The translations under genes were made by a program, and so were the position numbers. A DNA stretch of 23,118 nucleotides from positions 1 to 23,118 of the IMG/VR virus record IMGVR_UViG_2565956626_000019. One strand, written 5' to 3'. This DNA is from a virus. Lineage: Duplodnaviria; Heunggongvirae; Uroviricota; Caudoviricetes. Below, one piece after another: positions 1-18,964 of the stretch. The notes under the pieces are model-generated. The model saw only the letters and a program-made list of their open reading frames with translations. It made no database searches and was not told the origin of the DNA. Position 1 is the first letter of the stretch, and every line of letters starts with the position of its first letter.

Positions 1-1158
1 ATGCTCACCGTTAAGCAGATTGAAGCAGCAAAGCCGAAAGAAAAACCATACCGCCTTCTCGATGGTAATGGCCTGTACCTTTATGTCCCTGTATCAGGGA
101 AAAAGGTATGGCAGCTTCGCTACAAGATTGACGGTAAGGAGAAAATCCTGACTGTCGGAAAATATCCGCTTATGACTTTGCAGGAAGCAAGGGATAAGGC
201 ATGGACTGCGAGGAAAGACATCTCGGTTGGCATCGATCCGGTAAAGGCGAAAAAGACTTCGTCTAACAACAATTCATTTAGTGCGATTTACAAGGAATGG
301 TACGAGCACAAGAAGCAAGTCTGGTCAGTAGGCTATGCAACTGAACTTGCCAAAATGTTTGATGACGACATTTTACCCATCATCGGCGGTCTTGAAATTC
401 AGGATATTGAGCCGATGCAACTGCTGGAAGTAATCCGCAGATTTGAAGATCGCGGTGCAATGGAGCGAGCCAACAAAGCACGCAGAAGATGCGGCGAGGT
501 TTTCCGTTACGCTATTGTCACCGGCAGGGCTAAATATAACCCGGCACCTGACCTTGCAGACGCCATGAAAGGATACCGCAAGAAGAACTTCCCGTTTCTT
601 CCAGCAGACCAGATCCCTGCATTCAACAAAGCACTGGCAACATTTTCAGGAAGCATCGTATCGCTCATTGCGACCAGAGTTTTACGCTACACAGCCCTAA
701 GAACGAAAGAGCTTCGTTCCATGCAATGGAAGAACGTCGATTTTGAAAACAGGATTATCACCATCGATGCCAGTGTGATGAAGGGTCGAAAAATTCATGT
801 GGTCCCGATGTCAGACCAGGTGGTTGAACTTCTCACTACGCTAAGCTCAATCACCAAACCAGTCTCAGAGTTTGTTTTTGCCGGGCGCAACGATAAGAAG
901 AAGCCAATCTGCGAGAACGCGGTATTGCTTGTGATCAAACAAATCGGCTATGAGGGTCTGGAAAGCGGTCACGGATTCAGGCATGAATTCAGCACGATTA
1001 TGAACGAGCACGAATGGCCTGCTGACGCTATTGAAGTGCAACTGGCACATGCCAACGGCGGATCTGTGCGCGGGATTTACAACCATGCTCAGTATCTGGA
1101 TAAGCGCAGAGAAATGATGCAGTGGTGGGCGGACTGGCTTGATGAAAAGGTGGAGTGA
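1..1158 (+). CDS. int: Tyrosine integrase, P4-like family (N-terminal arm-binding domain plus C-terminal catalytic domain). ATG sits at window base 1, so an upstream extension cannot be excluded.
   Basis: 385-aa ORF. N-terminus LTVKQIEAAKPKEKPYRLLDGNGLYLYV...GKEKILTVGKYP is typical of P4-type integrases. C-terminus has HGFRHEF (His/Arg box) and RGIYNHAQYL (candidate Tyr nucleophile). Stop TGA at 1156-1158. Confidence 0.9.
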   Translation: MLTVKQIEAAKPKEKPYRLLDGNGLYLYVPVSGKKVWQLRYKIDGKEKILTVGKYPLMTLQEARDKAWTARKDISVGIDPVKAKKTSSNNNSFSAIYKEWYEHKKQVWSVGYATELAKMFDDDILPIIGGLEIQDIEPMQLLEVIRRFEDRGAMERANKARRRCGEVFRYAIVTGRAKYNPAPDLADAMKGYRKKNFPFLPADQIPAFNKALATFSGSIVSLIATRVLRYTALRTKELRSMQWKNVDFENRIITIDASVMKGRKIHVVPMSDQVVELLTTLSSITKPVSEFVFAGRNDKKKPICENAVLLVIKQIGYEGLESGHGFRHEFSTIMNEHEWPADAIEVQLAHANGGSVRGIYNHAQYLDKRREMMQWWADWLDEKVE

Positions 1159-1184
1159 ACCATCTTAAAAATCAATGAAAACAT

Positions 1185-1216
1185 GCAAGGCCTGGCACTC
1201 AAGTTACAGGCCTTGC
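1185..1216. terminator. Perfect 10-bp inverted repeat (GCAAGGCCTG / CAGGCCTTGC, 12-nt loop) between the convergent int and tailspike genes; likely bidirectional terminator, possibly part of the att region.
   Basis: Read directly in sequence. On the minus strand the hairpin is followed by AUGUUUUCAUUGAUUUUU; on the plus strand by an AT-rich tract (1217-1266). Confidence 0.4.
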
Positions 1217-1266
1217 GCATACAATTTATCAACTAATAATTTAATTTTTTAAAATATCAATTAATT

Positions 1267-3444
1267 CTATCTAATCCTGAACATTACAATTGGAGCAGAG
1301 CCAGAAGATAAAGGGCCTGACCAATGGTATCTAATTCTGAAAGAAGACTCACTTGGAGTTCCGATAATTTCTATTGGACTTAAAGTTGCACCTTCTGCAG
1401 AACCAGCAGGTTGTCTAAACCCCAACACAGCAATCTGGTTTGGTGTTGGGGCATACAGAAAATTATGCTCAATATCAACCTCGTTAGATTCGCTACCTGT
1501 TGGGTTTGGCATATTCCACTCAATATAATCGTCAGTTGATTTCCCATTTATTGAGTTTCCAACTGTTGCCATAATCGTCCACGTACACGTCCTGTTAAGG
1601 GCTGCCATTCTATCACCTAAAAACCTATTATAACCATTTGCGCCTGAAGTGATTAATCTTATATTCTCTGATGCACATGTGCCAATGCTGTTAAATCCAG
1701 TGCAATCAGAAGAAAGCCCCTTCGCAGTTATATCTACGCTGTTCGCAAAACAAATTGTTGTTGAATTTACTGCATCGCGAATAAGAGCAGAACCCGAAAA
1801 CAAATTATCACACGAACCTCTTATATTATTACCACCGCCGGATAAGTAACATAAATTTCCTTTTATCCTCTTGGATGTAAAAGTAACATTGTTATTGTCA
1901 CCAGTAACAGAAAGAAGCGAGGCTTTAATAGGGGCATTGTCACTCTGCAACTGACCAATTTGGTTTATTGTAACTACATTGTTGTTGCCTGATATAGCTA
2001 TCTGATACCCATCATCATCAATTGAAGGTGAATATCTTTGTGCTTTTATATTGATGTTAAGTGTCCAGATTTTACCGTTATCCAGAAGCATGTCGCGGAG
2101 AGGAGAAATTGAATCGCCAGTGTAGTTATCTGGCATTCTTCCGCACGCCCTGGCTTCTGCGATGGCAACAACACCATGTGCCCCGTTGGTAAACCAGTAA
2201 CCACCTAAACTATTATCAACACACACGTGCCTCGCATTGAATCGGTTAACACCCAGCGTCTTAAATCCATAGCCATAATACACAGCATATACATGGATGT
2301 AATTTATATCGACATGTCCTGTATAAGGAGACTGATTATCAAGAACAATTCCATGACATGATTCTCCTGGATAAAGAAGGCTTTGTTGGCTTGTTGCTGT
2401 TAATCTTGCGCTGTAAGGAGGAAGTCCACACAGGCCAAAAACAATATAATCTAGGTTAATATCACCTGGCCCCCTGAACACAACCCCCTCTCTCCCTGAA
2501 ATTCTTCCCGTTATCCTCACTTCAGAGGCGTGTTCCTGATTATCATGAAATGATCCATACCCCTCTGAATAGAGAGCATGTTCTGCAACATTATTAATCT
2601 CAACGTCAATGTGGTACATGCTGCCGAATATTTTAATGGCAGTTCCATAGTCATTGTTAACAGTGTCGCAAGTTCTCCATGAGTTTGTATCTCTTTGCAA
2701 GTCAAGATAATTACCATCAATGGTCATATCTTTTATGCTAAATCCATATGGCGCATCAGACAGATTTTCCACAACGCCAAAGCCATGTGTTTTAAATACA
2801 TCTGTATTACTACCTTTTTTAACATACAGAAATGTTGCTCTCTTTCCAGAGCCTTTATGATGAACGCCTGTATAAAGAATGATAGGAGAATCTATTAAAT
2901 AAACACCTGGAGGGTAAAATATTTCCCCACCACCATTATTAAAAGCAGCTAATGCTGCGGCATTAATGGCATCAGAATCTGATGTCAATCCATCTGCTTT
3001 AGCTCCATAGTATTGAGGTGTTTTCCTGATTGCATCGTAAACCGTTGAAGCGCCGAAACCGATATATTTACTACCATCTGTACCGCCAATAAGTAATTTA
3101 AACTGATCCGGGTCGTACTTCAACACATTAGGAAAATTGAACTGCTGCGCCCCATATGCATCATAAACAGCCATAGAATGGCCTTGCACAGTTACGAACT
3201 TGGCAATCTGTCCGTTATATACCGGGTAACCAGCAGCGTTAATGATGATTGGTTGAGAAACAGGAACGTGAGAGCCGTCTTCGTTCTCCACATAAACCTG
3301 AATCTGGTTTTCTGGATTTACTGGGTCAGTGTCAATTTTACCGATATAAATTTTACCATTGGCAACTGCTTTAAAAGAACGCGCCATAGTGAAGAGTTGC
3401 GATGGCATGCTTACCACAACATTGGCATTTATTGAATCTGTCAT
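1267..3444 (-). CDS. Tailspike protein: P22-gp9-type N-terminal head-binding domain fused to a divergent beta-helix-like receptor-binding domain.
   Basis: 725 aa. N-terminus [44 protein letters not shown]...[13 protein letters not shown]...[10 protein letters not shown] closely matches my recollection of the P22 tailspike N-terminus. Remainder is Gly/Asn/Ser-rich repeat-like sequence. ATG at 3444 with GGAG 8 nt upstream; TAG stop at 1267-1269. Confidence 0.85.
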
Positions 3445-3576
3445 TTAATTTGCTCCAGATACAAGGAATCACCGCAGCATGGCTACGGTTGGAATTTGTT
3501 ACATACCTAAACGGTACGATTGTTGATTTGTACAGTGGGTTTTACGATGCCATTCCACCCATTTGGTGAGGCATTG

Positions 3577-3834
3577 ATGATGTACAGCAAATACGATGAG
3601 GCGCAGTTCCACTTGAGGCTTACACACGAGTTGCACGCTAAGATTAAGCAGCGTGCAAAAATGAATAACAGGTCTATCAATTCCGAAATTGTGGCTACGA
3701 TGGAAGAATCACTCTCCAAACCATCACCTGTAAGCGGGTATCGTGATGAAGAAGAGAGGCTGGCCTCATTAATCTCGGAACGAGTAAAAGAAGTTGCGGC
3801 TGATATCCTTAGAAAAGAAAAAACCCGCGATTAA
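3577..3834 (+). CDS. mnt: Mnt-like ribbon-helix-helix repressor (Arc/MetJ superfamily with C-terminal oligomerisation helix).
   Basis: Residues NNRSINSEIVATMEESLSKPSPVSGYRDEEERLASLI align with recalled P22 Mnt (NGRSMNSELLQIVQDALSKPSPVTGYRNDAERLA). ATG-ATG at 3577-3582 preceded by GGTGAGG 5 nt upstream. The track ORF from 3520 starts at a TTG and is probably an artefactual extension. Confidence 0.8.
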   Translation: MMYSKYDEAQFHLRLTHELHAKIKQRAKMNNRSINSEIVATMEESLSKPSPVSGYRDEEERLASLISERVKEVAADILRKEKTRD

Positions 3835-3850
3835 GCGGGTTTAGTTGGTT
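3811..3850. terminator. Bidirectional intrinsic terminator shared by convergent mnt (+) and the arc-bro-ant-orf73 operon (-).
   Basis: Stem AAACCCGC (3821-3828), loop GATTAA, stem GCGGGTTT (3835-3842). A-run at 3813-3823 gives UUUUUUCUUUU after the hairpin on the minus strand; T-rich TTTAGTTGGTT follows on the plus strand. Overlaps the mnt stop codon. Confidence 0.65.
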
Positions 3851-4070
3851 AGTTATCAAAAAGTCCGTACGTTTCTTCTTCTTCAGGTGTAAGGGGAAGA
3901 ATCTCTACTCTATCTATAGATACCTTTTCAATGTACCCATGAGGTCTACTTAAAATTAAAGCTCTCTCATGCCACAGAACTCCAAGAATGTGATACCTTC
4001 CAGCATCGCCTTTTACCCTGGCTCTTCCTTTGATTCTTGGAGGCATAATGCCATATTTTTTCTTTGCCAT
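3849..4070 (-). CDS. Hypothetical small basic protein with acidic C-terminal tail (73 aa), translationally coupled to the upstream Ant-like gene.
   Basis: ATG at 4070-4068 overlaps the upstream TAA in a TAATG arrangement. Sequence MAKKKYGIMPPRIKGRARVKGD...LTPEEEETYGLFDN. No family recognised. Confidence 0.5.
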   Translation of the reverse strand: MAKKKYGIMPPRIKGRARVKGDAGRYHILGVLWHERALILSRPHGYIEKVSIDRVEILPLTPEEEETYGLFDN

Positions 4071-4798
4071 TATGCAACATTACTCCCATGAATCAGGTGT
4101 TGTAGTGCTTTAACACCTTCCGCATTGTAGCGGAATGCTTCCACCTGTTTGCTGGAATGCGCAGATTTATCCAGGAAGAACTTCCCGTACTGCTCAGTTT
4201 TGAGGTTGTTTGCGTTAGCAATGCGACCAATCTTGTTGGCCGTTACTCCAAGCTGCTCTGCAACCTCCCCTGCTGAGTAGTAATGCTCTTCTATTGCCGG
4301 AAGAGGTATTGCATTAAAACCAACGAGCGGGTTGATTATACTTGCTGCCGCTGTCTGCTTTGCCTCAGGCGCAAGATTTGGCATCAGATCGAACAGATTG
4401 GTAACAGCTTCAACCGTCATTTTCAGTGTTCGCGCCTGGCGATACTCAACAAGTCCACTCGACGATTTACCGCTTTTAATGTGCGCTTCTTGCATACTTT
4501 CAAGTTGGTCTACAAGTGAGCGGCGAACAGCTTTAGATTCACGAGCAGCCACTCGAAGGGCTTGCTTAATTGACATAACAACTTTTTCAGAAGTTGTCTT
4601 GTTTGATTTTTGAACTACGAAAATTTCGTAGTGCTCACCTTCAAGTTCATCCTTAATGCGTGCAATAAAGTCGTTATTGCGAACTTCTTTTTCCCCGCAC
4701 TGTCTACGAGCATGATTGACCATCTCTAACAGGTACTGGCTATCAATGGTTTTATCCGTGACAACGGATCCGATGTTTGCTACATTCTTAAAAGTCAT
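4070..4798 (-). CDS. Antirepressor-like protein with C-terminal KilAC/ANT-type domain.
   Basis: 242 aa from ATG at 4798, with AAGGAA 6 nt upstream. C-terminal segment YYSAGEVAEQLGVTANKIGRIANANNLKTEQYGKFF resembles the antirepressor KilAC DNA-binding motif. The track ORF to 4885 begins at a TTG. Confidence 0.6.
   Translation of the reverse strand: MTFKNVANIGSVVTDKTIDSQYLLEMVNHARRQCGEKEVRNNDFIARIKDELEGEHYEIFVVQKSNKTTSEKVVMSIKQALRVAARESKAVRRSLVDQLESMQEAHIKSGKSSSGLVEYRQARTLKMTVEAVTNLFDLMPNLAPEAKQTAAASIINPLVGFNAIPLPAIEEHYYSAGEVAEQLGVTANKIGRIANANNLKTEQYGKFFLDKSAHSSKQVEAFRYNAEGVKALQHLIHGSNVA
4758..4786 (+). promoter_or_regulatory. Candidate sigma70 promoter on the plus strand, antisense to the ant-like gene start (P_sar-like).
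   Basis: -35 GTGACA at 4758-4763, 17-nt spacer, -10 TACATT at 4781-4786. Predicted start about 4793, reading across the ant-like start codon (4796-4798) and its Shine-Dalgarno (4805-4810). Confidence 0.4.
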
Positions 4799-4866
4799 TA
4801 GGCATTCCTTATGTGGTAGTAAGGGTGTGACATAGGCCGCCAGCAGCACACTGGCGGTTTTCTTTT
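4793..4866 (+). ncRNA. Candidate ~75-nt antisense RNA (sar-like) covering the ant-like ribosome-binding site, ending at a plus-strand intrinsic terminator.
   Basis: Plus-strand terminator: stem CCGCCAG (4837-4843), loop CAGCACA, stem CTGGCGG (4851-4857), then TTTTCTTTT (4858-4866). It lies inside a minus-strand operon and would not terminate minus-strand transcripts. Architecture mirrors P22 sar in the immI region. Confidence 0.45.
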
Positions 4867-4885
4867 GCGCCGTCCTGGGCACCAA

Positions 4886-5512
4886 TCAATGAATCCATTC
4901 CTCGCCGCGAAGTTTTGCCAGCATTGGCTGAGCGTTCTTTACGACAAAATTGTTGGGATCAAGATTCTTCATTTCACGAAGAAGCGATTTCTTGGTTTCT
5001 TCTGACATGTAGCGAGTCTCATATGCAATATCGTAAATCCTTCCTGAAAGCTCAGAACCAATTTGCTTCATTCCTGGGTAGATGTGTTTGCACATTTGTT
5101 GACTCTTCTCCATCCACAATTGTAAGTAGCAGAGATTAACCAGTTCTTCGTCAGTAAACTGTTTTGCAATCGGTGAGCATTCTGCCTGCCGATCCAAAAT
5201 ATCCAGCACCCAGCGGCGGAACTCTTTGGCTACCGGAGTGCGAGCAAACATCGCGATTAGGTGGGCACCGCGTAGTGAGAAAACTCGCACTTTTTTGCGA
5301 TAATTTCCTGAGGTACTCACTTCGAGTACCTGAGTCATTCCGGCGCTAAACTCATCGCTATACTTGTTATAAATCATTGTTACTGCACGGCTATTTGCAT
5401 ATTTAAGTGCAGATGCAATATTAGATGATGTAAACCAAACACCATGCATATCACGGGTGGGCACCAACTCAACTCCGTGGAAGTTGTAATCTGATTTTGC
5501 TACAATATTCAT
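4886..5512 (-). CDS. BRO-N/AntA-like antirepressor-family protein.
   Basis: 208 aa from ATG at 5512, with AAGGAAA 7 nt upstream. N-terminal region ...GVELVPTRDMHGVWFTSSNIASALKYANSRAV... and ...LIAMFARTPVAKEFRRWVLDIL match the BRO-N/KilA-N pattern. Alternative ATGs at 5542 and 5617 lack good SD. Confidence 0.65.
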   Translation of the reverse strand: MNIVAKSDYNFHGVELVPTRDMHGVWFTSSNIASALKYANSRAVTMIYNKYSDEFSAGMTQVLEVSTSGNYRKKVRVFSLRGAHLIAMFARTPVAKEFRRWVLDILDRQAECSPIAKQFTDEELVNLCYLQLWMEKSQQMCKHIYPGMKQIGSELSGRIYDIAYETRYMSEETKKSLLREMKNLDPNNFVVKNAQPMLAKLRGEEWIH

Positions 5513-5585
5513 GTTAGTTTCCTTGCATACGGTTACTGACATAGAGGCCCGGTTTGTGTTCGCGCACTGCCGGGCTTCACTATTT

Positions 5586-5759
5586 TTATTGGATGACAAC
5601 ATCGCCCTTTGCCTCAAGTTTCATCAATAACTCCATTCGATAAGCTATCTCTGCCTGAATTGACCTATGGCATCTTTTTGCTGATTCGCGGATATGTGAA
5701 TCAACCTTTTCTGTAAAACGAACCTGACGCGGCTTGATGGAAGATATCTTTTCAGTCAT
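5586..5759 (-). CDS. arc: Arc-like ribbon-helix-helix repressor, 57 aa (not in the supplied ORF track because it is under 60 aa).
   Basis: My translation: MTEKISSIKPRQVRFTEKVDSHIRESAKRCHRSIQAEIAYRMELLMKLEAKGDVVIQ. Aligns with recalled P22 Arc (..FNLRWPREVLDLVRKVAEENGRSVNSEIYQRVMESFKKEG). AGGAG 6 nt upstream of ATG (5759-5757); TAA at 5588-5586; first gene of the minus-strand operon. Confidence 0.6.
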   Translation of the reverse strand: MTEKISSIKPRQVRFTEKVDSHIRESAKRCHRSIQAEIAYRMELLMKLEAKGDVVIQ

Positions 5760-7224: not shown

Positions 7225-9066
7225 TTAGCGATCAGTTGCATCATTGGCAAGTATTGGTCTGATGGCATTTGCGGCGTTATTCAGCGCTCTTTCATAGGCT
7301 GGCGTTCCAGCTTTAGTGTTTGCCAGACGTAAGAGCGCATTCCTTGCTGCTTTGGACTCATACAAGCGCATCATTGCACCGAAACCAGCCTCAAGCCCCA
7401 TTGATACGCCAAGAGTCGCAGTTGCGCCAATCGTCCTTATCCTGTTGGCTTGCGATTGCCCCGTCTGAGTTACTACATTTGCGGTGTCTGACCTTGCTGT
7501 TTGCTGTAGAACTTCATTAAGAGCATCAAGTTCTTTCATGTGCTTTCCAGAAAAAATAGTGTTGTAAATTTCACCTCCTGACTGAGATTTCAGCTTATTA
7601 ACTTCAGTGATGAACTTGGCTGGAGAGTCGCCGGCCTTTTCCGCTATTTTGCTGACGTAAGCTGCACGCATAGCATCTTTCCCTTTATCATCCAGTGCGC
7701 TCCAGATTCGTTTCACGTCAGATGGTTTTCTGCTTAATACAACGGTATTTATAAGTTCAGGACTGGCTTCACTGCTTGCCTTGTTGAGCTTGTTGGCAAT
7801 GTTTTTATTAAGCACCTTATTATAAACGTTTGCATAATCGGAATTTGCTTTAAGGTATTTTGCTGCGTCTGATGCACCGAGGTTTTTAGCAACTGCGTTA
7901 CGAAGGTCTTTTGACATTGCATTCTCTACCATATTGGTAGCTGCTTTTGCCTGGTTGGGGAAGACCATAGCATCTCCCTGAACATTAGATCTAAATGCTG
8001 TTCTGTGCTGACGCAAGAGATCAAACGTAACATCCAAATCAGTTGCAGGGTTTGCTAATTCTTCACGTAGGTTACGCAAGGATGTAAGCAGGCTTTGATT
8101 GGCAGACGTCCCAAGCCGTTCCTGTCTTGCGATCGCTGTATTCAGAGCATTCATGGTATTTGTGGTATCAACTGCGGCATTACCCATTTTATTGGTGACG
8201 TCATTGATAACAGCGCCAGCGGCATCCTTCCGCCCCCTTAACGTGGTGGTAAGAGATTTCACCACATCATCAGGGTTGTACTCACCAAAACGGTCAAAAT
8301 AATTGCTTACCAGTTTACTACGCGTTGCATATTGCTCCGCTCTCTTTGAGCCTGTCCCGAGCAAAGCCCCCTCGGCATCCTGAGTAAGGCCACGAGTGAA
8401 AGCATTTTTCGGCGGGATAACATCAGATGTCATTGGTGTCACGCCCATCGATTCTGATGTGGCAATTTTCTTCGCCACTTCTGGCGCAATATCACCTTTT
8501 ATAGCCGTTATTCCACGCCCTATTCCCTTTGCTGCTGCGGAAAGAACACCCTGAGCGGCAAGGTTAACTCCGGCATTTTTGGCTGCATTTTGTGCGAAAT
8601 CGCCTTTCTGATTTGCGGCCTCTGCCAGTGATCCAATAGCCATGCTTCCTGCCATTCCAACTCCTGGAACTAAATACCCGCCAATTGTTTCTCCAGCTTG
8701 CGCATAAGGGTCTGTTGGTCGATCTACTGGACGATAAACATCATCCAAAACCTTGGGGCCACCAAGACCCTGGCTGATTGCATTAATCAGACTTGCGCCA
8801 CCCTGCAATACGTCAAATGGTATGTTTACCAGACCACGGCCAGCCTGTTCTGCAATTTGCCCTGCACTTTGACCACCAGTGAGCCAATCGCCAGCTTGTT
8901 GCATCAATGATGGTTCTTCACGTGCTGGTTCATTATTGGCCTGATTAACTGTTTGTTGCTGAACAGCCTGACCAGCAAAATACTCATCAATGGCGGTGCC
9001 AATATCTTCCGTGCTCGTACCATCAGGAAAGGTAAATGTCTTACCGTTTGCAGTTACTTTCATCAT
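7225..9066 (-). CDS. Ejection (pilot/E) protein, P22 gp16-like.
   Basis: 613 aa; size and position match P22 gp16 (the last gene before the accessory region). ATG pair at 9066/9063 overlaps the upstream stop. Confidence 0.65.
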
Positions 9067-10538
9067 TCCACCGTAAATTGAATGCCTGATTTTGAGGTAT
9101 ATGATCCGGATTGACTCTGCTGCTGTTGGGTATTTGTCGGTTGTTGGCTATTGCTCTGTTGTTGACTATTTGCAGCACTTGAAACCACCAAAGCATCATA
9201 AACGCGACCAGACTGACCACGTAATGAGTTATATTGGCCCTGCATTTTTCGCATTTTTGTTTCAGTAGCAGCCTTGGAATCACCGGGCTGAGGCAGGTAC
9301 ATTTTGGAATACTCCTGCATCTCTGGCAGAGTAATTGCTGCACCTGTTTCTGGGCGCAAAATTGCATACAAGGCGTCTCTCGCATTTACCATATATTGCT
9401 GCTCCGCTGGTGATAGGCTTAAATTTGCAATAGTCCCATCACCAAGAGAGCGATTTATTAATGCAACTCGCTTAGGGTCAATGCTTTTACTAAGCTGATT
9501 CATTGAGTCCATTGAATCTTTTAATCGCAAAGCAAATCCTGCCGCCTTCTTGGAACCCTCATTAGCCTTATCTATGATGCTTTGCGCTTGTGGCAAACTA
9601 ATTGGTTTAATGCCATCACCAGATATAGGTTGGTTTAGTTTTCCTGCTTCCTCGCTGCCATCGGTGTAATACTTAGTTACCGAGCCATCAGGATTGGTTT
9701 CAACCTTAAGTAATTTCTTAGCATTGGGATTAATTCCCGCCGCTGCCGCAAATGCCGCTGCACCATCTGGATCCGCCTTTAACATTTGCGCGTACTGATT
9801 GTAATTCTGCATTGCGGCTGTTGGTGCATATGCTGACGTTAACGCATTTGCTCGGCTAATATCCTGCCCTCTCGCCTGAAGTGCTTCGCTGGCCTGATTG
9901 CTGCGGATTGTCTCTGCCAGTCTGCCTCGGTCAATCTCACGACCAGCTATCTTGTCCTGAACAGCAAACGCCTTTTCTGGCCCAAGTGCACCGAGAGACA
10001 TAGTAGTCAGCATGTGTGATAGCTGCTCTGGATTCTGAATACCTGTCTGAATCATCCAGTCAGCATTCGCCCCCACGCGATTTAACCTGTCCTTGTTATC
10101 AGTAATGAATTTACTGTAGGCTTCCGGTCCCTGAGAAAGAGCGACGTTAGCCCTCATGGCTAAATCGCCCATATCGTTGCGTTGCTGCTCATTAAGACCG
10201 GAAAATGCCTGTTGTGCCTGTGCAACAAACGCTGGATTTTCCTGGGCAAACTTAAATAGTCCCGATGGATCACCAGAAGCCCATGCATCAGCATGAACCT
10301 TATTGAACGCATTAATCGCTTTCTGTTGCTGTTCCTGCTTATAAATATCAGCAACTCCAGCCAGACCACGTAACGCGGTCAGACCAACGTTATTTGCACC
10401 TGAGCGAGCCAGTTCATTGTTTTCGCGGATCAGACCAAGCGTTGCGTTAATGTCGCTTGCTTTTGGCGCATTCTCATTTTGCGCACCAATGCCAGCCAGA
10501 AAACCACCAGAATTAATACCCTGTTGCCACGTAGCCAT
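9063..10538 (-). CDS. Ejection protein, P22 gp20-like.
   Basis: 491 aa; Ala/Gln-rich low-complexity sequence; synteny with P22 gene 20. Stop TGA at 9063-9065 overlaps the gp16-like start. Confidence 0.65.
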
Positions 10539-10548
10539 TGATTAACCC

Positions 10549-11244
10549 TTAAAACAGTGAACCAAGAAGACCAAGACCGCCGCCAACAGCGGCACCAATA
10601 CCAGTACCAATACCGGGAACAATGCTGCCAAGCTGTGCTCCAGCAATTGCTCCAGAGGCAGCCCCGCCTATTGCAGATTGAAGGCCGGAAGGTCTATTAG
10701 CGTTTGCCGCCGCCAGTGCCGCGCTTTGCTGTGAAATCTGGCTCATGTTGTTGGCATATGTTTGCCCGGCGTTTGCCTGCCCCTGAAGAGCGCCAAGACC
10801 AATATTTGCCAGATTCTGGTAGTTGTTCATCTGGCCAGACAGCCATTGCTGACCAAGCGTTGGTGCGATTGTTGCTAACTGATTACCGGTTGCAGTGGAA
10901 CCCAATCCACCTGTTGCTTCCGCTGCAGCCAGACTCTGATAGCGAGCCTGACCAGCAAGATCTTTGTACTGCTGAGAGTTGTAATACTGGTTAAGTGCCT
11001 GACCTTGCCCTTCCAGAGACGATAAGTTCTCGAGGCTGCCGACATACTTATCAGCCAGAGGAGTAAACGGCTTCAGGTTGTTCATGATGGTGTTGAACTG
11101 CTGATTTTGCAGGTCTGCTGCATACTTCTGAGCTTCTGCGGCATACTTTGCGCTTTTATCAGAACTGCCACCTTTCCCGCCTTTTTCATGGCAATAAGGT
11201 TCCTCGCCGCGCAGTTTTCTGCCCAGCTTAAATGCATATAACAT
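10549..11244 (-). CDS. Ejection protein, P22 gp7-like.
   Basis: 231 aa. N-terminus MLYAFKLGRKLRGEEP...KGGKGGSS and Gly-rich C-terminus; size and order match P22 gp7. Confidence 0.7.
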   Translation of the reverse strand: MLYAFKLGRKLRGEEPYCHEKGGKGGSSDKSAKYAAEAQKYAADLQNQQFNTIMNNLKPFTPLADKYVGSLENLSSLEGQGQALNQYYNSQQYKDLAGQARYQSLAAAEATGGLGSTATGNQLATIAPTLGQQWLSGQMNNYQNLANIGLGALQGQANAGQTYANNMSQISQQSAALAAANANRPSGLQSAIGGAASGAIAGAQLGSIVPGIGTGIGAAVGGGLGLLGSLF

Positions 11245-11246
11245 GG

Positions 11247-11702
11247 CTATCTCCCGTGATTCAGGAAGTCGATTAGTTCTTCGCGTGTAGCACTGTAAAA
11301 TGTCACGTCATCCACGCCTTTGAAGTATTTCTTGATGGTTCCTACACGCTTAAGGCCAATCATTGCGCAGTACATCTGACCGTGGCGGAATTTGCGTGCG
11401 GCGAACGATGTGACGCACTGAACGGTGGTGTTAGTCAGAATGTATCGCCAGAACGCCAGCCCGATTTCCTTGCTGAAGCCGCGAATCTCTGGCAGGTACA
11501 TGGCGTGGCAATCGAATGTCAGCGGCTGAATCTCCTGATAGTAAACAATTCCGCCGAACTGCCCGTGCACGTTCACCTCAAAGTAACGGCATTCAGGTTT
11601 GTAGTCGTATCCATCACCGTTGTTGCTTCCGGCAATAATGTCAGGGTGATTTCCGACTGCTTCTATCAGGTCGATGTTTCGCGTTGGTTTGAATGTAATC
11701 AT
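11247..11702 (-). CDS. Virion assembly/ejection-associated protein, P22 gp14-like (assigned by synteny only).
   Basis: 151 aa between the tail-needle and gp7-like genes. ATG at 11702 overlaps the upstream TGA (ATGA). No sequence motif recognised. Confidence 0.45.
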   Translation of the reverse strand: MITFKPTRNIDLIEAVGNHPDIIAGSNNGDGYDYKPECRYFEVNVHGQFGGIVYYQEIQPLTFDCHAMYLPEIRGFSKEIGLAFWRYILTNTTVQCVTSFAARKFRHGQMYCAMIGLKRVGTIKKYFKGVDDVTFYSATREELIDFLNHGR

Positions 11703-12403
11703 CAGTCAATCAGCCCATGTAATCTAAGTGCTGTTTCAAGCGCCAGAATACGCTGCCGCGCCTGCTGCAAACCTGTAGCGAGAGCCGCGACTTCGGATTG
11801 TGTGTACGTAGTGCCGACCGTGTATGACTGGTTAGCGTTGAATGAGCCAAGAAGAGGTGTACCTGTGGCTGCAGTCCATCCGGTATTTCTTGCTCCAACA
11901 ACCTGAATTCCATCAACTGAATATGACGTTTTTACATCCAGCGGTGACGCAAGAGACTGCGATTCGGTTACGGTTTTCGATACGTAATCACTCTTAATGC
12001 CAGAGACATCGTTTTCTACGTCATCCAGTCTTTGGTCAACAGTGACCAGATGCGCCTGAATATCGATAACCTCATCCAGCAAGTAATCAACATCGCTACG
12101 CAGTACGACTATCTTCCCTTCGGCGGTTGTTAACCTGACCTCAAGGAGATTTATCGCTTTTGTGTTTGCGGTGATTCTTGCGTCGTGATCAGCCAGTTCG
12201 ACATCCTGTTCATCGTTTTTTACCTGGGCATCGTAAGCGCCCTGACCAGCCTGATTTGCCTTCCCGGCAATTGCGCCGACATCAGCCCCCTGATTAATGA
12301 CATACAACAGGTAAGACTGGCTGAATATATTGCGTGGAAGGACTGATGTGTCGAGTCGTGTAGTCTGAATGATTACCGGCTCATTGAGATTCGAATCAGC
12401 CAT
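11702..12403 (-). CDS. Tail needle (cell-envelope-penetrating fibre), P22 gp26-like.
   Basis: 233 aa. [73 protein letters not shown]... closely matches recalled P22 gp26; coiled-coil C-terminus ending ...RLHGLID. Confidence 0.85.
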
Positions 12404-13821
12404 TACTCAATCCTTATCTGGCAGCCAGACAGAGTGACAGGTGACTTCGTGATAACGCGCAATTTGAAACCAATGTTTTTCCTGATGCGCCCTACTCGCT
12501 TCCACAAAACACGCTTGTCGTAAACGAACGGTTCATTCTGCTCAATCATCTGCTCACGCCCGTAATTGATGCCGTCAGTGGTTGCAGAGAGAAAAAGGCG
12601 GTCGGCGTACTGCGCAACGCCAGTTGACGATTCAACCTCAAGGTCGAAAACTCTGGCGTTATCTGCTTTGAAGAGTGGGGTAAACAGCAGATGTTCCTGT
12701 TGCTTGTCGTACTGGCTGCTGATATCGAACTGCAATTTCCCGGTCACGGATTCCAGCTTATCGCCGCACGTTATCTGATTGCCTTCGTAAATGAAGTCGA
12801 TAGCGCGGTACACATCGTCATACAAGCCAGTTTTCAACACACACCATTGCGGACCATTGGCGCTTGAAGATGCGTCGTACACGAGAACATGGCGCGGAAG
12901 GTGGATAATCAGCAACTCATGAGCATCAAATCGCAGCGATTCCATCACACCATCAGCCAGTTCATCAGCAGTGTAGGAGCGGAGGATTTTCTCAATGCTC
13001 GCGCTGGCGATTGGTGATACCTGACCTGAGCCGATGATGTATACAGACGGCGCACCTGTTGCCGGATTGCTGATGAACGCATACGAGTCAGCAAACGGCG
13101 TTTTGCAGTAGGTTCCGGCAATGCCTTTCTGCACCATCAGCGATGGCTGTGCGACATACAAAGCGGCACCAACAGTGGTTGCACCTGTCAGGGAGAAATA
13201 TTCAATCGTTGATGAACCAAAGCAGACGATGAAGTCTCGCCATGTCCCTATGCCGATGATGCCATCAGGCTGTGATTCTGCGCGATATTGTGCGCTGTAT
13301 CGGTCAGGATGCGATTCGTCTTCAAGGTCAGTGATAAACCATGAATCAGTGCCGTCTTTTGACCACGCATAACGACCACGTAAGCGCGTAATGTCACGGA
13401 CCGAACCTAACTCATACTGTGTGAATCCGCTGTCCGCAGGCCAGTTTGAGACTGTTTTAACCGTGCCATCATAGCGATACTCGACCAGTTGACCATTAAC
13501 ACCTACCGCCTGTGATGTCCGACCATGCGCCATTGATACACGACCACTTCCGGCGACGTCACCGACTTCACTTTCGCCTTTGTACAGCTTGCCACCACAC
13601 ACACGATAAACAGCATTCTGCGCCATGTTGTACTCGACGCCGCGCGATACGCCGTTCACATCAGAACGTTTGGCAATGCCCGGGAATGAGCGAAGATATC
13701 CGCTGCTGTTAAGGATTTCTTTGGGTGTAGCCAACATATTCACTGGCAGATAGTCGATATAGTCGGCGTTTCGGAAGTCTTTGCCGACACCTTTCATAAG
13801 CGGAAGTTGCTGAATAGGCAT
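12403..13821 (-). CDS. Tail hub / tail accessory factor, P22 gp10-like.
   Basis: 472 aa, the same length as P22 gp10. N-terminus [49 protein letters not shown] matches recalled gp10. Confidence 0.85.
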
Positions 13822-13830
13822 TTATTCACC

Positions 13831-14292
13831 TCACGTGCTCGGATCATCTTTCTCGATGTAAAACCGATTCCACGTAAACGCGCTTTTGTTACCACTACCG
13901 CGAGGCATGTCATTTCGCCGCTCAAGTGGTGGTATTTTGGTTAAAGCGATACAGATTGTTTGATATGCACTGTCAGCAGCGGTAAGGAGAGCGTCTGACG
14001 GCTGAATGACGTTATCCATGCACACTTGCACAGCGAGTTTCAAAGCGACGCCATCATTTGCCCATGCAGGGATACCTGAATCATCGTCAGGTAACGGCAT
14101 GATGCCGTTTTCTGTATCAGCAAACTGATATCCAAGCTCGATACCTTTAGCCTGCCATGCTGCCATCATGTCTTCGAGGTCATTAATGGCATCTTCAATT
14201 GCCTGAGGGTCAGCATCTGTCAACGTGGCATTGGAATACAGCCCGGCTTTTCGTAAAGCCTTAAGAACGAGATCACCCTTCGTTTTCGCCAT
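13831..14292 (-). CDS. Head-to-tail adaptor, P22 gp4-like.
   Basis: 153 aa. MAKTKGDLVLKALRKAGLYSNATLTDADPQAIEDAINDLEDMMAAW resembles the recalled gp4 N-terminus; positioned directly upstream of the gp10-like gene. Confidence 0.7.
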   Translation of the reverse strand: MAKTKGDLVLKALRKAGLYSNATLTDADPQAIEDAINDLEDMMAAWQAKGIELGYQFADTENGIMPLPDDDSGIPAWANDGVALKLAVQVCMDNVIQPSDALLTAADSAYQTICIALTKIPPLERRNDMPRGSGNKSAFTWNRFYIEKDDPST

Positions 14293-14461
14293 CTTCTTCC
14301 GCCTTAGCCACTTTATGCTTCGTTGCGGTTTCTTCAGGAGTTTTTACCCAGCCTTTTTTCAGGTGAGATTTAACTTCTTCGTCATCAACAATGATGTAAT
14401 CGACAGCAAACTGACCACAGGTGATCATGTTGCCAGGCTTATAGAGCATTGTTCGTGCCAT
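14273..14461 (-). CDS. Small hypothetical protein between the coat and gp4-like genes.
   Basis: 62 aa from ATG at 14461, with GGGAGAAG upstream. Track ORF from 14500 starts at a non-ATG codon inside the terminator hairpin. Overlaps the gp4-like start by 20 nt. Confidence 0.4.
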   Translation of the reverse strand: MARTMLYKPGNMITCGQFAVDYIIVDDEEVKSHLKKGWVKTPEETATKHKVAKAEEDGENEG

Positions 14462-14469
14462 TGTCTTCT

Positions 14470-14502
14470 CCCAATAAAAATGGGGCCGAAGCCCCACCAA
14501 AA
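14470..14502 (-). terminator. Intrinsic terminator/attenuator immediately downstream of the coat gene.
   Basis: Minus strand: coat stop TAA (14505-14503), then hairpin UGGGGC-UUCG-GCCCCA (14496-14481), then UUUUUAUU. Confidence 0.5.
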
Positions 14503-15762
14503 TTACTGCCCGGCAATAACGATGCCCGTATATTCAGGAACAAGTACAGAGCAACCGTACAGGGTGGTGAAACGCGCAGTGGTTACACCTTTGATGTGGT
14601 CGAAGGCGTAAGACATGATCAGCGTAGCGCCCTGCTCGGTGGTTGCTGTCATTACCTGTGGACCCTGACCAGTCGGGAACGCCAGTTTGCCGTACATCAG
14701 CTCAACAGAACCATCAGCCCAGAACAGGTTAGCAGGTGCTGCGTTCTTGTTGAGAATGGTGATTGCTGCAGTTTCTGCCGGCTTGGCATCGACGTTTGCA
14801 TATGGACGGCTCGCAACATCGGCATTTCCAACAGGGAGAATCTTTGGAGAGATTGTTACGGTGGTTCCTGCTGTGTCTACTGCCAGAACGCGGAATACCT
14901 GCGGCTGCCCGGTGGTATCTTTGGTGATCTGGTGTACGGAATTCACACCTGCGATGGTAAACGCATCGCCAACCTGCAAGCCTTTAGCAGATACCGTAAT
15001 GGTCCCCTGTCGGTTATCAACAGGCATGCCATTTGAATCTTTCGCTTCAACCTTGTGTTCAGGTTGATTTGATACTGTCAAGGTTTCAGTGCTTCCTGCC
15101 GGTAATCGACCGGAAATATCGGTCTTGTAGCTATCAAAGGAAGCAACCGGAGGGATCTGCGCTTTTTCGTATGCTGTCAGGGTTGCGCCCTGAGCGTAGG
15201 CACGGTGACCAAGCTCGCCAGCAAGGTCTTTGTAGTTGAATGGGTTCCAGAAAGAGCGACGGTTGATACCCTGAGGTACACCAATCGCCGTCATGGTGGC
15301 ATCAATATCTGCCGCACCATTCCACAAGGCGAGGCCCCGTGAGCCATTTTCTGAGGCAGGAATTGCGACCACGTTAGTAGCACGCTGCGTGACCATGGAA
15401 ATCAGGTCAGAGTCAATCTGTGCAGCAAGGCGCATGCCTGCGGCTCGACCAGCTTCAGTTTTATGTTCCGGGTCACGCATTTCACGCGCATCCAGAGTGT
15501 ACAGAATGTTTTTCGGCTCCTTGAACACAGAAGGAACAAGGCGCTGAACCAGTGCTGTTGGTGTTTTTTCGCTGAGGTCCAAGCCCTCCTCAATGTTCAT
15601 GTGGTAATGCTGCGGACGATACAGAACATCACCTGCTCGCTGCATTGCTGTATCACCGGGACGGAATTTTTTAGCGTTACGGGAAACTACGCAGGCGGCC
15701 TCAAAGCCTTCAACGTAGTTTTCGAACATGATTTCAAGGTCTTTTGCTAATTGGTTAGCCAT
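14503..15762 (-). CDS. Major capsid (coat) protein, P22 gp5/Sf6 gp5-like.
   Basis: 419 aa. Segments KKFRPGDTAMQRAGDVLYRP and NLFWADGSVELM parallel recalled P22 coat [20 protein letters not shown] and NVFWADDAIRIV. GGAG 8 nt upstream of ATG at 15762. Confidence 0.8.
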   Translation of the reverse strand: MANQLAKDLEIMFENYVEGFEAACVVSRNAKKFRPGDTAMQRAGDVLYRPQHYHMNIEEGLDLSEKTPTALVQRLVPSVFKEPKNILYTLDAREMRDPEHKTEAGRAAGMRLAAQIDSDLISMVTQRATNVVAIPASENGSRGLALWNGAADIDATMTAIGVPQGINRRSFWNPFNYKDLAGELGHRAYAQGATLTAYEKAQIPPVASFDSYKTDISGRLPAGSTETLTVSNQPEHKVEAKDSNGMPVDNRQGTITVSAKGLQVGDAFTIAGVNSVHQITKDTTGQPQVFRVLAVDTAGTTVTISPKILPVGNADVASRPYANVDAKPAETAAITILNKNAAPANLFWADGSVELMYGKLAFPTGQGPQVMTATTEQGATLIMSYAFDHIKGVTTARFTTLYGCSVLVPEYTGIVIAGQ

Positions 15763-15780
15763 GCTTAATGCTCCGATAGG

Positions 15781-16674
15781 TTATTTTTTTGCCTTTTTAG
15801 CGGCGAAATACGGCGTCCAGTCACCAGTTTCCAGCGCCTTGGCTTTCAATTTGTCGAGGTTGTTGATTACTGCGCCGTTGCTCCCCTTAACTGTCGGGGT
15901 TGTGGCTGCCGTGGTTTTTGCTTTTGGCATGATTCTGGCCTTCGATTCGATACGTTCCAGCAGACGACCAATTGCTACGGGGTTGGTAGCTTCTGCCAGT
16001 TGCTTGCGCAGTTCAGCGTTGCGACCAAGCGCCAGAACAACGATTTCCGGCTTCTCTGACTCAAACAGGATCGCGTTTTGTGTCTCGATGGGGATTTCCT
16101 CGAGTACGGCCTGTTCTGCTTCCTGATAGCCAGGAACTTTGAGAGCCTTAACACGTTGCTGATATTTGGATAATCGCTCTTGATAGGCAGCCTGAAGCTC
16201 CTGCTCCTTCTGCTTGCGAGCCATCTCCTGTTGCTGGTACTTGCCGTTATCCTCTGCCCACTTAGCCATGCGTTGCTGGTAGATTTCTTCATCGAAACCG
16301 ATGTCCTCATCATCCAGTTTTGGCATTCGCGGTGGTTGAGTTATTACCGGCTGCTGCTCGACGGGTTTCTGAGACTGACGCATCAGCTCTTTCAGCTCGC
16401 GGTCTTTCTCTTTAATCGTCTTGCGCAGGTGTTTTACCAGTCCATGCTCTGCGCCATCTTCGCTGGTTGGCGAATCCAGCTTTTCGTCACCAAAGTAGAA
16501 TTCCTGCTCTGATTCGTCGTCATCAGTTTCAGTAGCTTCCTCTGCATCATTGCCGGAGGACTCACTGCCATCTTCTGTTTCGACTTCTTCAGCCAGTTCG
16601 ACATCATCAGGAATCTGCTCTGACGCGTCGGTTTCGATTTCAACTTCTGGTGTGTTTTCTGCCATCTGGTCCAT
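15781..16674 (-). CDS. Scaffolding protein, P22 gp8-like.
   Basis: 297 aa. Highly acidic N-terminus, coiled-coil middle, basic helix-turn-helix-like C-terminus (...LDKLKAKALETGDW...AKKAKK). Lies between the portal and coat genes. Confidence 0.75.
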   Translation of the reverse strand: MDQMAENTPEVEIETDASEQIPDDVELAEEVETEDGSESSGNDAEEATETDDDESEQEFYFGDEKLDSPTSEDGAEHGLVKHLRKTIKEKDRELKELMRQSQKPVEQQPVITQPPRMPKLDDEDIGFDEEIYQQRMAKWAEDNGKYQQQEMARKQKEQELQAAYQERLSKYQQRVKALKVPGYQEAEQAVLEEIPIETQNAILFESEKPEIVVLALGRNAELRKQLAEATNPVAIGRLLERIESKARIMPKAKTTAATTPTVKGSNGAVINNLDKLKAKALETGDWTPYFAAKKAKK

Positions 16675-16764
16675 TTGTTACCCCTGTTTACTCGATGTTC
16701 AGCCCATCGGAAGGCAATAGGGTGCCAGGCCTCATAAAGACAGCCATTGCACGTTATGGGTTAA

Positions 16765-18963
16765 TTACTGCTGTGGTTGTTGCTGAGTTGATTTTTGCAG
16801 GATGCTGCTGATGTCCATGCGCTGCGCATGGCCCTGTGCCTGACTTTTCAGGACAAGCTCTGCATCAGCACGGGCATTGTCTCCTTGCTGTTGCTGGAAC
16901 TGTCCGAGCAGTTTCAGAGCCTCGCGGATATCAGATTTCTGCTGGCTATCGGCAGATGCGAGGATTTTCACAACATTTGCCGCTGCAACCTGAGCATCAG
17001 TCTGTGCCTGGAATGCTTTAACCTGAATGGCTGCCTGCTCGTTCTGCGCTTTCTGCAATTCAGCCTGACCAGCAAGAAGCTGACCTTGCGCTGCAACCAT
17101 AGCCGGATCTGGCTGACTGGCCTGTTGTTGTTTCGCCTGCTCAACCATCTGCTGTTCTTCTGGCGTTCTCGGCTTGATAACTCCAGACAGAAGCAACTGA
17201 TTGCGGTTGTATTCTTTAAGATCGTCCATCCCTTCGCCGTCCATATTGTCGAGGATCATCGACGATACAAGGTCGTGTTTCGGCGTTCCGGGCGGGATAA
17301 GTGCCAGCATGGAAAGTAACGACTTAACCGTTGCATCACGGCGAGTAGCGAACGACTGACCGACATCGACAGTCACTTCATAGTTACCCTGCGAAAGGTC
17401 GTTAAGCGCGATAACCTGCCCTGTCTGACGGTCAACCACTTCACCAGTCATCAGCGCCACGTCATCGCTGCCGTCCTCATTAACGACACGCATCGGCGTA
17501 TCACTGCCATAGACTTCACGAGCCATAGAAAGCCACACGACGCCAGCGCGGCGCATGGATTTAGCCATGTTGTCCATGTAGATATAGGACTGCGTGTCCA
17601 TCCGGTTAAAGATGCTATCAACGGTATCGGTAGCGACGTTGCTCGGCATGTTCTCAAGCTGCGACGCACCTGTAATTTGCTGAATAGCAGTTCCGGTGTA
17701 CTGCAATAGCCCGGCAAGAGCAGGAGGCATTTGTGTCGGAGGTGTCCAGCCAGCAACCTGAGCCTCTGAAATGACCGTTCCGTTTTTGTCCTTCTTGCTC
17801 GTCATGGGAAGAACTGCAGGTCTTTTCTTATTCCTCTCTGCCCAGTAATTCATTAATGGGCCGGGAATGAAATCAACATCCACGATAGGAATGCCATCAC
17901 CGCCAGCCTGAGTAGCGTTATCTGCAATCATGGAAACCATCAGGTTCTCAAGACGCTGTGCATCCATCGCTTTTGCTGCGTGGCCTTCGATTCGCTCCTG
18001 ATTATCAACAAATGAGCGACGCCCATATACCGGGATGAGTGGAATATGTTCGCCCGGAATACGCTTCGGTTCTTCCAGCCATTCAGCGCCAGACAGAAGG
18101 CCGCAATAAACGCGGCGTTTCTTCACAGTTCGCTCACCAATCAGTTCGAATGCGCCATCGGTTAGCTCGTCGACAATATCTTTGATTTGCTCTTCATCAT
18201 AGATTGCCGTTTCTCCGCTGACAGGGTTACGCCACGCCGTGAGATTCACCTTCTCTATGCGAACTTCGTAGTAGCGTCCAACATAGATGGCATCGGGCGT
18301 TGACCAGTCATATTGAGTGCCAGTGTCATCACGAGAAAGGCTTGCCGCGATGGAATCAGGGTATTCAGCCTCGAACGCTTTGGGCGTCATGGAGAACATT
18401 TCCATAGCCCACATAGCATCAGAGCGGTCATATTGCTTGCTGTCCTGATCGAAGAAGACGCATGTCGCCGGGTCGTAAACAGGAAGAAGGCTAATGCGTC
18501 GCTGCTCGTTACTTGGGTCCATTTCATCTTCGTAATCGGCACACATGCGGAAACAACCGAATCCGCCCGTTACAGCATCATCAAATGCGTTATCACACGC
18601 TTCACCACCGGATGTTTCCTGATAATCAGCGCGGAATTTGCCGTTCATCTTTTCGGCTAACGCTTCCGATGCCTTATCGTCCTTCGGTCTGAATTTAACG
18701 CTGATGCGATTCTGTCGATACTCGCCAATGATGCGATCACATTCACGGGCAATCTTATTCAGTTCAAAGCGCGGATAATGCTCAAACCTGCCTTCATCAA
18801 ATGAGTAACCAGCGTTTGTGCTGCCTTCCCACTGTGCGCCGGACACCCTGACGAAGCGTTGAGCTTCTATAATCTGCTCACGCATATCCTGCGTTGCTGA
18901 CCAGGCATTATCAAAGTTGCACAGCACCTTGCGATGCCAGTCAGTCATCTTTTTTTCTGCCAT
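16765..18963 (-). CDS. Portal protein, P22 gp1-like.
   Basis: 732 aa. Gln-rich C-terminal barrel ...EEQQMVEQAKQQQASQPDPAMVAAQGQLLAGQAELQKAQNEQ...QRMDISSILQ parallels recalled P22 portal C-terminus; positioned after the large terminase gene. Confidence 0.9.
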   Translation of the reverse strand: MAEKKMTDWHRKVLCNFDNAWSATQDMREQIIEAQRFVRVSGAQWEGSTNAGYSFDEGRFEHYPRFELNKIARECDRIIGEYRQNRISVKFRPKDDKASEALAEKMNGKFRADYQETSGGEACDNAFDDAVTGGFGCFRMCADYEDEMDPSNEQRRISLLPVYDPATCVFFDQDSKQYDRSDAMWAMEMFSMTPKAFEAEYPDSIAASLSRDDTGTQYDWSTPDAIYVGRYYEVRIEKVNLTAWRNPVSGETAIYDEEQIKDIVDELTDGAFELIGERTVKKRRVYCGLLSGAEWLEEPKRIPGEHIPLIPVYGRRSFVDNQERIEGHAAKAMDAQRLENLMVSMIADNATQAGGDGIPIVDVDFIPGPLMNYWAERNKKRPAVLPMTSKKDKNGTVISEAQVAGWTPPTQMPPALAGLLQYTGTAIQQITGASQLENMPSNVATDTVDSIFNRMDTQSYIYMDNMAKSMRRAGVVWLSMAREVYGSDTPMRVVNEDGSDDVALMTGEVVDRQTGQVIALNDLSQGNYEVTVDVGQSFATRRDATVKSLLSMLALIPPGTPKHDLVSSMILDNMDGEGMDDLKEYNRNQLLLSGVIKPRTPEEQQMVEQAKQQQASQPDPAMVAAQGQLLAGQAELQKAQNEQAAIQVKAFQAQTDAQVAAANVVKILASADSQQKSDIREALKLLGQFQQQQGDNARADAELVLKSQAQGHAQRMDISSILQKSTQQQPQQ

Positions 18964-18964
18964 A

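Follow-up and report, generated by a model that had tools for sequence, protein, structure and literature searches.

The tailspikes of P22-like phages join a head-binding domain conserved over residues 1-115 to O-antigen-cleaving C-terminal domains that are unrelated to each other, a plan described since at least 2008 (PMC2629481), and receptor-binding domains (RBDs) are exchanged horizontally between Lederbergvirus and Uetakevirus prophages and track the O-serogroup of the host (Pas et al. 2023, PMC10408124). A tailspike gene of this kind (1267..3444, minus strand) was found in a viral DNA stretch of 23,118 nucleotides, referred to here as the window (IMG/VR record IMGVR_UViG_2565956626_000019). 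The gene is read with good confidence as that of a P22-like (Lederbergvirus-type) prophage at argW, with a conserved virion anchor, a recombined receptor-binding cassette and the Escherichia coli O25b O-antigen as the most likely receptor. The two-module architecture is textbook, and the gene is an ordinary modular phage tailspike with an uncharacterised receptor-binding domain.

The 725 aa open reading frame (ORF) is listed as intact in the window and starts with ATG. It matches PHROG 8280 'tail spike protein' over its full length (E 9e-225), identical copies are already annotated in RefSeq as 'phage tailspike protein', and the same name is given to the 148 members of a family (P0001) found in a large protein database at 99% identity over the full-length protein. 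The ORF is a real gene, the tailspike of a P22-like prophage.

The head-binding (virion-anchor) domain occupies codons 1-114 (3103..3444, minus strand), as deduced from a match to Pfam Head_binding (PF09008; aa 4-114, E 2.8e-64, scoring 214.8 bits where the cut-off is 24), from identities to known phages and from PDB sequences, where constructs of the P22 head-binding domain (aa 5-117) and the Sf6 tailspike gp14 (aa 1-217) match best. Over aa 1-114 the protein is 98.2% identical to HK620, 95.6% to CUS-3, 91.2% to Sf6 and 74.6% to P22. The domain, which an initial annotation made from the letters alone had called near-identical to that of P22, is thus of the P22 type but, by its sequence, HK620-like rather than P22-like. 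BLASTP aligned query aa 1-117 with the P22 tailspike (72.7% identity), aa 1-130 with HK620 (89.2%), aa 1-218 with Sf6 (56.6%) and aa 1-175 with CUS-3 (71.0%), with nothing significant past those ranges in the four proteins. Protein similarity to all four stops at or shortly after aa 105-114, abruptly as had been noted, and the receptor-binding part has no sequence homology to the C-terminal ~550 aa of P22 gp9, nor to the RBDs of HK620, Sf6 and CUS-3.

At the DNA level, blastn similarity to P22, HK620, Sf6 and CUS-3 stops at window position ~3101. When eight tailspike genes were aligned as nucleotides, the six comparators of E. coli/Shigella type proved 83-100% identical to the gene, and P22 50-80%, up to the KYDPDQ codons (gene nt ~343), after which identity is ~20-50% in all seven; the comparators also part from one another at this position. 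The 5' recombination junction was therefore placed directly 3' of the KYDPDQ(F) codons (3098..3102, from the blastn end-points and the alignment), and the breakpoint that had been put near 3100 proved accurate to a few bases, since the four phages end at ~3101 and the sibling prophages described next at 3098-3101.

Three sibling E. coli prophages, EC17CM7, ACN001 and DETEC-E601, all at argW, are 95-97% identical to the window in two blocks, 1-1153/1168 and 3098/3101 to 5592/6000, while between ~1168 and ~3100 they carry unrelated sequence. The exchanged cassette, as judged from these alignments, spans ~1168-3100 and comprises the receptor-binding part together with an AT-rich 3' spacer (1159..1266, GC 28.7%) lying between the convergent integrase and tailspike genes. 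Its 3' junction is sharp and lies at ~1167/1168, a few bases past the integrase stop codon, the siblings matching only to 1153-1168. As the flanks are common to the siblings while the interval is replaced, and as the core of the RBD was also found on an anchor of epsilon15 type (see below), the sequence evidence supports a recombinant gene in which a foreign receptor-binding module has been joined, at a 5' junction at ~3100, to a conserved head-binding module of P22 type, and the proposed swap of the receptor-binding module holds. Full-length similarity to a single known tailspike lacking a composition break was not found among the near-identical RefSeq proteins, since what they represent is the present mosaic gene, carried by related strains, and not a characterised tailspike.

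The base composition gave a more nuanced picture. The guanine-plus-cytosine (GC) content of the receptor-binding part (1267-3100) is 40.0%, compared with 42.7% in the head-binding part (3101-3444), a difference that is not significant (chi-square p = 0.38), and with 47.8% in the rest of the window (p = 1.6e-10); so low a value occurs in only 1.4% of segments of that size taken elsewhere. The contrast sharpens at third codon positions, where GC (GC3) drops from 42.1% in the head-binding part to 30.0% in the receptor-binding part (Fisher p = 0.012), most virion genes having values of 0.50-0.55. The DNA described as visibly more AT-rich is so relative to the rest of the window and in GC3, but not relative to the head-binding part in total GC; the composition break is real against the whole prophage and weak at the junction itself. 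Low GC is also not peculiar to 1267-3100, since two large ejection/DNA-transfer genes (7225-10538) have a GC3 of 0.38-0.40 against 0.50-0.55 in the other virion genes, and these may constitute a second horizontally exchanged segment.

The gene is a mosaic of at least four segments, so that the two-part architecture first proposed is right about the swap but not about the number of segments. This was disclosed by the tailspike of a prophage in E. coli NR379 (WP_074158656.1, the P0002 family of 23 members), whose codons corresponding to ~155-585 (window ~2982 down to ~1690) are 97-100% identical in nucleotide sequence, whereas binned identity is 35-52% for codons before ~150 (above ~2994) and about 43-77% for the C-terminal ~140 codons (~1689-1267). 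Four segments can thus be delineated on the minus strand: the head-binding domain; a linker with the beginning of the beta-helix N-terminal cap (codons ~115-154, 2983..3102); the recently exchanged beta-helix core of the RBD (codons ~155-585, 1690..2982); and a C-terminal part with the final helix turns and a small beta domain (codons ~586-725, 1267..1689), which is a diverged homologue of the epsilon15-type protein. The linker has no counterpart in HK620, Sf6 or P22, nor in the epsilon15-type gene (35-52% nucleotide identity), and resembles that of P0018, a separate family of P22-type tailspikes from E. coli. The inner 5' junction lies directly after the GAKxDG cap motif, which PF12708-type beta-helices have in common.

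The NR379 prophage, inserted beside yfgI, is otherwise different and encodes large internal proteins as well as a core protein of the T7 gp14 family. Its RBD-bearing gene is annotated as 'glycosyl hydrolase family 28-related protein', and the N-terminal 165-214 aa of the product are 71.5% identical to the epsilon15 tailspike gp20 and 95-96% to epsilon15-like coliphages; this gp20-type anchor (about 165-205 aa) is present in P0002 and is not found in the window protein, which has PF09008. As far as these alignments can tell, the beta-helix core alone was exchanged very recently between Lederbergvirus-type and Uetakevirus-type prophages, so that host specificity would be carried as a portable cassette. 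Assembly would have proceeded by homologous or microhomology-guided recombination at four conserved boundaries: after the KYDPDQ codons (~3100), the sequence switch point of all P22-type tailspike genes; near the GAKxDG motif (~2982); near codon ~585 (~1690); and just beyond the integrase stop codon (~1168).

Proteins related to the C-terminal ~600 aa were found behind other N-termini, in P0002 of Escherichia (87% over aa 127-725) and in P0003 of Atlantibacter hermannii (74%). A further set (P0004-P0016), with several members named from Pseudomonas and others coming from metagenomes, comprises proteins at about 44-53% identity, some with PF18668 (TSP1/gp66-type) and others with no recognised anchor, and another E. 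coli P22-type tailspike family is 28% identical over the receptor-binding part. The beta-helix family is spread well beyond enterobacterial podoviruses.

The fold of the RBD was approached by Pfam and by an AlphaFold2 model built from a 36-sequence alignment. PF12708 (Pect-lyase_RHGA_epim) matches aa 146-257 above its gathering threshold (42.2 bits, threshold 27), corresponding to the N-terminal cap and first coils of a beta-helix. The model has a mean predicted local distance difference test score (pLDDT) of 80, rising to ~90 over aa 140-725, which are nearly all beta strand; scores are low for aa 119-139, and the C-terminal part (codons ~586-725) is modelled as beta strands at about 66-91. 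The receptor-binding part is accordingly predicted, at high confidence, to be a right-handed beta-helix with no close solved relative, and Foldseek gave the same beta-helix family picture, with the A-module of the Azotobacter mannuronan C5-epimerase AlgE4 (2pyg) and other pectate-lyase-like beta-helices alike at fold level only. The description of this region as unrelated to the P22 endorhamnosidase is correct for the sequence, but not for the predicted fold, which is of the same general right-handed beta-helix class. In the mid-helix of 34 family members, the charged and aromatic residues that are invariant or nearly so include D280, E319, D328, D369, E379, H384 and Y386. Since the P22, Sf6 and HK620 tailspikes have acidic pairs or triads, these residues are, by analogy, candidates for the active site, with candidate catalytic carboxylates among D280, E319, D328, D369 and E379. 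The N-terminal 114 residues, as members of the head-binding sequence family, would dock the spike onto the tail, while residues ~140-725, presumably trimeric, would bind and probably cleave a host surface polysaccharide, as suggested by the predicted fold and the mode of action of the P22, Sf6 and HK620 tailspikes; cleavage would give the virion access to the outer membrane.

DNA of the RBD was detected in 11 of 5,426 complete E. coli genomes, ten copies being of the P22-type gene (99.3-100% identical DNA) and one being that of NR379, and had no match among deposited phage genomes. O-antigen clusters were located for ten of the 11 carriers. Nine of these, including the epsilon15-type carrier NR379, have O25b-type clusters, while the tenth, EC32, has an O16 cluster. 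The O25 cluster is intact, with an identical wzx (WP_001296215.1), in MNCRE44, OZ040950, Ecol_276, GN04171, CAVp367 and OZ039045; it has an IS1 insertion in AR_0058 (locus L012, 3449-4146), one glycosyltransferase gene split in two in strain 875 (L022, 1-747), and a deletion of rfbBDAC-wzx in NR379 (L018, 6936-8004). Since O25-type loci are present in 462 of the 5,426 genomes, the enrichment is strong, with an odds ratio of 87 (p = 2e-8), a value calculated on a count of 8 of 9 that ignores kinship and is not independent evidence.

The damaged clusters in three of the ten lysogens would fit loss of O-antigen under phage pressure; IS1-bearing O25 clusters also occur in non-carriers. In every O25b cluster examined (e.g. 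locus L009, 2997-4059) the same pseudogene, called as a 'frameshifted hypothetical protein', lies between the GT4 gene and wbbJ, and this may in fact be wzy, the polymerase gene, wrongly called during automatic annotation.

The P22-type gene occurs in at least three contexts, two of them at argW, where the backbone is either that of the window or, beyond 3477, another one, and the third beside torT, where only an integrase remnant accompanies it. The last copy is recorded on 'plasmid p3' of EC20 (L023, 8943-15446), a location that was rejected as torT, torR and torCAD adjoin the prophage end; the 176-kb contig most likely belongs to the chromosome and was mislabelled, and its prophage occupies a site other than argW.

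From the host distribution, the O25b O-antigen of the carrier lineage, which is likely to be sequence type 131 (ST131) judging by strain MNCRE44, is the most likely receptor. O25B contains only glucose (Glc), rhamnose (Rha) and N-acetylglucosamine (GlcNAc), and its 3-linked Rha is predicted, on the basis of homology to O16, to be 2-O-acetylated (PMC8260533). With O25b as receptor, a glycoside hydrolase would therefore be expected and not a lyase, although this is speculative. The O25b and O16 clusters of the carriers have rfbBDAC in common at 90% nucleotide identity and wbbJ/wbbK-like genes at 67%, and, speculatively, a substructure common to both antigens could explain the O16 carrier. A narrower proposal, that the core is an O25b-specific endoglycosidase module moving as a near-identical cassette between P22-type and epsilon15-type ST131 prophages and perhaps recognising a 2-O-acetylated Rha-GlcNAc element (Rha2Ac-GlcNAc) shared with O16, is put forward only tentatively, its chances being somewhat below even. 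Judged by the yardstick of PMC10408124, by which one RBD subtype should be found, across transfer events and on different phage chassis, in hosts of a single O-serogroup, the simple claim that the module is O25b-specific is weakened by the O16 host and by the kinship of the carriers, and it is kept as an inference only.

Several observations weigh against O25b as receptor, or against the reading as a whole. All carriers appear to belong to one lineage, as judged from identical WP accessions and the same ~350-kb spacing, so that the O25b association is phylogenetically confounded. It is accordingly conceivable, though unlikely, that the link reflects clonal hitch-hiking and that the real receptor is unrelated, is an O25b/O16 sub-structure or is some other lineage-specific surface feature. 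The ten hosts checked have the same chromosomal layout, most with identical WP accessions around the O-antigen locus, and the O16 cluster of EC32, the wbbJ/wbbK-like genes common to both clusters and the 2-O-acetyl-L-Rha predicted for O25B all agree with this view. The occurrence of the same core on two unrelated phage chassis, and of the P22-type gene in its several contexts within the lineage, suggests instead that the host surface has exerted selection, in preference to simple vertical inheritance. The rarity of the RBD bears on both sides, as only about 2% of O25-locus genomes carry it, which counts against the O25b reading, while such sporadic occurrence also argues against hitch-hiking. 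That the target is instead a capsule (K antigen), colanic acid or some other exopolysaccharide, perhaps acted on by a lyase or epimerase-like enzyme, is improbable. P22-type anchors can bear capsule-specific domains, as does CUS-3 with its endosialidase, and the O16 carrier and the three damaged O-antigen clusters are in line with such a target. The top structural neighbours of the model act on uronate polymers, which counts against the main reading, and the PHROG 8280 label mentions colanic acid; this label ('colonic acid degradation activity') was not accepted, being an inherited annotation with no test behind it that does not fit the narrow host distribution, since most E. coli make colanic acid, which would not explain a presence in 11 of 5,426 genomes. 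The single-tailspike prophages of the Lederberg- and Uetakevirus types typically track the O-serogroup (PMC10408124), which favours an O-antigen. There is also no characterised homologue linking the RBD to a glycan: the best protein in phage records (29.6% identity, phage vB_EcoP_R4596) is unannotated, so that, with the DNA unmatched, no characterised phage can lend a function, and a profile of the RBD family met only the generic N-cap among PDB sequences, with no clue to the substrate. Lastly, the head-binding part was badly modelled (pLDDT 25-55) and was not interpreted.

Two further explanations concern the gene rather than its receptor. If no module had been swapped and the C-terminal part had merely diverged fast under selection from an ancestral P22-type tailspike, the quick evolution of receptor-binding proteins and the fold class shared with P22, Sf6 and HK620 would be accounted for, but not the abrupt drop in identity, from 83-100% to 20-50% over a few bases, that all seven comparators show at one and the same position, nor the sibling flanks around unrelated inserts, the core found nearly unchanged behind a different N-terminal anchor, and the shift in GC3 from 42% to 30%; this explanation is effectively refuted by the sibling flanks, the alignment step and the shared core. 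That the gene is an inactive remnant of a defective prophage with no present function is quite improbable. The EC20 copy does adjoin an integrase remnant of only 84 bp, and some carriers are without some O-antigen genes; against this stand the intact ORF, its DNA conservation across ten genomes, the retention of the family-wide invariant residues and the complete P22-type virion gene set of the window.

The surroundings of the tailspike gene are those of a P22-like prophage. The window begins exactly at the ATG of intS (1..1158, plus strand), which encodes an argW-type integrase, as recognised from the ORF and from intS beside tRNA-Arg in Ecol_276 and the siblings, and which converges with the tailspike gene; the tRNA-Arg (argW) attachment site known from related genomes is immediately beyond the window edge. 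The Ecol_276 copy, 99.7% identical, has the order tRNA-Arg (argW), intS, tailspike. Upstream of the tailspike gene there is an immI-like region (3445..5617) with Arc-family regulators and an antirepressor-like protein with a P22AR C-terminal domain, as deduced from the ORFs and the RefSeq annotation of Ecol_276, followed by the complete P22-type virion module (7225..20802, minus strand) for ejection proteins, needle, head-closure, coat, scaffold, portal and terminase (PHROG, E 1e-67 to 1e-279). The tailspike thus closes the virion module, with the ejection-protein genes and the immI/ant 'moron' upstream of it, in the order of P22, HK620 and CUS-3. Between the immI-like region and the ejection-protein genes lies an ORF of 213 aa (5859-6500, plus strand) with an N-terminal helix-turn-helix region, named in related genomes only as 'helix-turn-helix domain-containing protein'. 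In the AR_0058 copy (H45), whose region is 98% identical, an additional gene with an HNH endonuclease signature motif is present within the stretch equivalent to window 1-5592.

No O-antigen-modification gene was found between tailspike and integrase (window 1159-1266), in contrast to gtrABC of P22 (between tailspike and attP), oac of Sf6, an O-antigen modification gene of HK620 and an acyltransferase gene of DETEC-E601 (L021, 1746-2333) at this position, and the lysogen is probably not seroconverted from this locus. A simple scan of 1050-3900 gave promoter-like sites at chance level (seven found, 8.2 expected) and no canonical terminator between integrase and tailspike.

The concepts of tailspike evolution are unchanged by this locus, which offers a clean, well-delimited case of a cassette swapped at the conserved KYDPDQ boundary of P22-type tailspikes, together with a very recent passage of the beta-helix core alone from one genus to another. 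Its main interest lies in the clean evidence for this core-only transfer and in a surface specificity for O25b (ST131-type) that is probable but unproven. The practical value comes from the host distribution, since hardly any carriers lie outside the pandemic O25b (ST131-type) lineage, which ranks as a major multidrug-resistant pathogen. Should this specificity be borne out, the module could be fused to anchors of other kinds, in the way that an O104:H4 prophage tailspike served to retarget a pyocin (PMC3303846), and would provide a ready-made recognition module for ST131 diagnostics, for retargeting of tailocins or phages and for stripping of O-antigen. O25 and O25b are absent from the serogroups assigned by Pas et al., 'O25' not occurring in the text (PMC10408124), and no P22-type tailspike specific for O25b or ST131 was found described in the literature searched.

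Among the known systems, HK620 (Lederbergvirus) has the closest head-binding domain in its gp9, with no sequence similarity after aa ~130, where its RBD is an endo-N-acetylglucosaminidase for O18A1. P22 gp9, an endorhamnosidase, has in common with the window protein the PF09008 family, the two-module plan and the same junction, but differs by its lower head-binding identity and its unrelated RBD. Sf6 gp14 aligns weakly through the beta-helix N-cap to aa ~217 and has a different RBD, annotated as an endorhamnosidase for the Shigella flexneri O-antigen, and in CUS-3 the different RBD is a K1 capsule endosialidase. The AlgE4 A-module is a non-phage protein of 16% identity that differs in its uronate substrate chemistry. 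The NR379 tailspike shares the core and an O25b-type host, and differs in its epsilon15/phiV10-type anchor of ~200 aa, which is not PF09008, in its diverged C-terminal ~140 aa and in its insertion site. Finally, the receptor-binding protein subtypes specific for O-serogroups (PMC10408124) and the O104:H4 prophage tailspike (PMC3303846) follow the same principle as the window gene, a conserved anchor combined with an exchangeable RBD.

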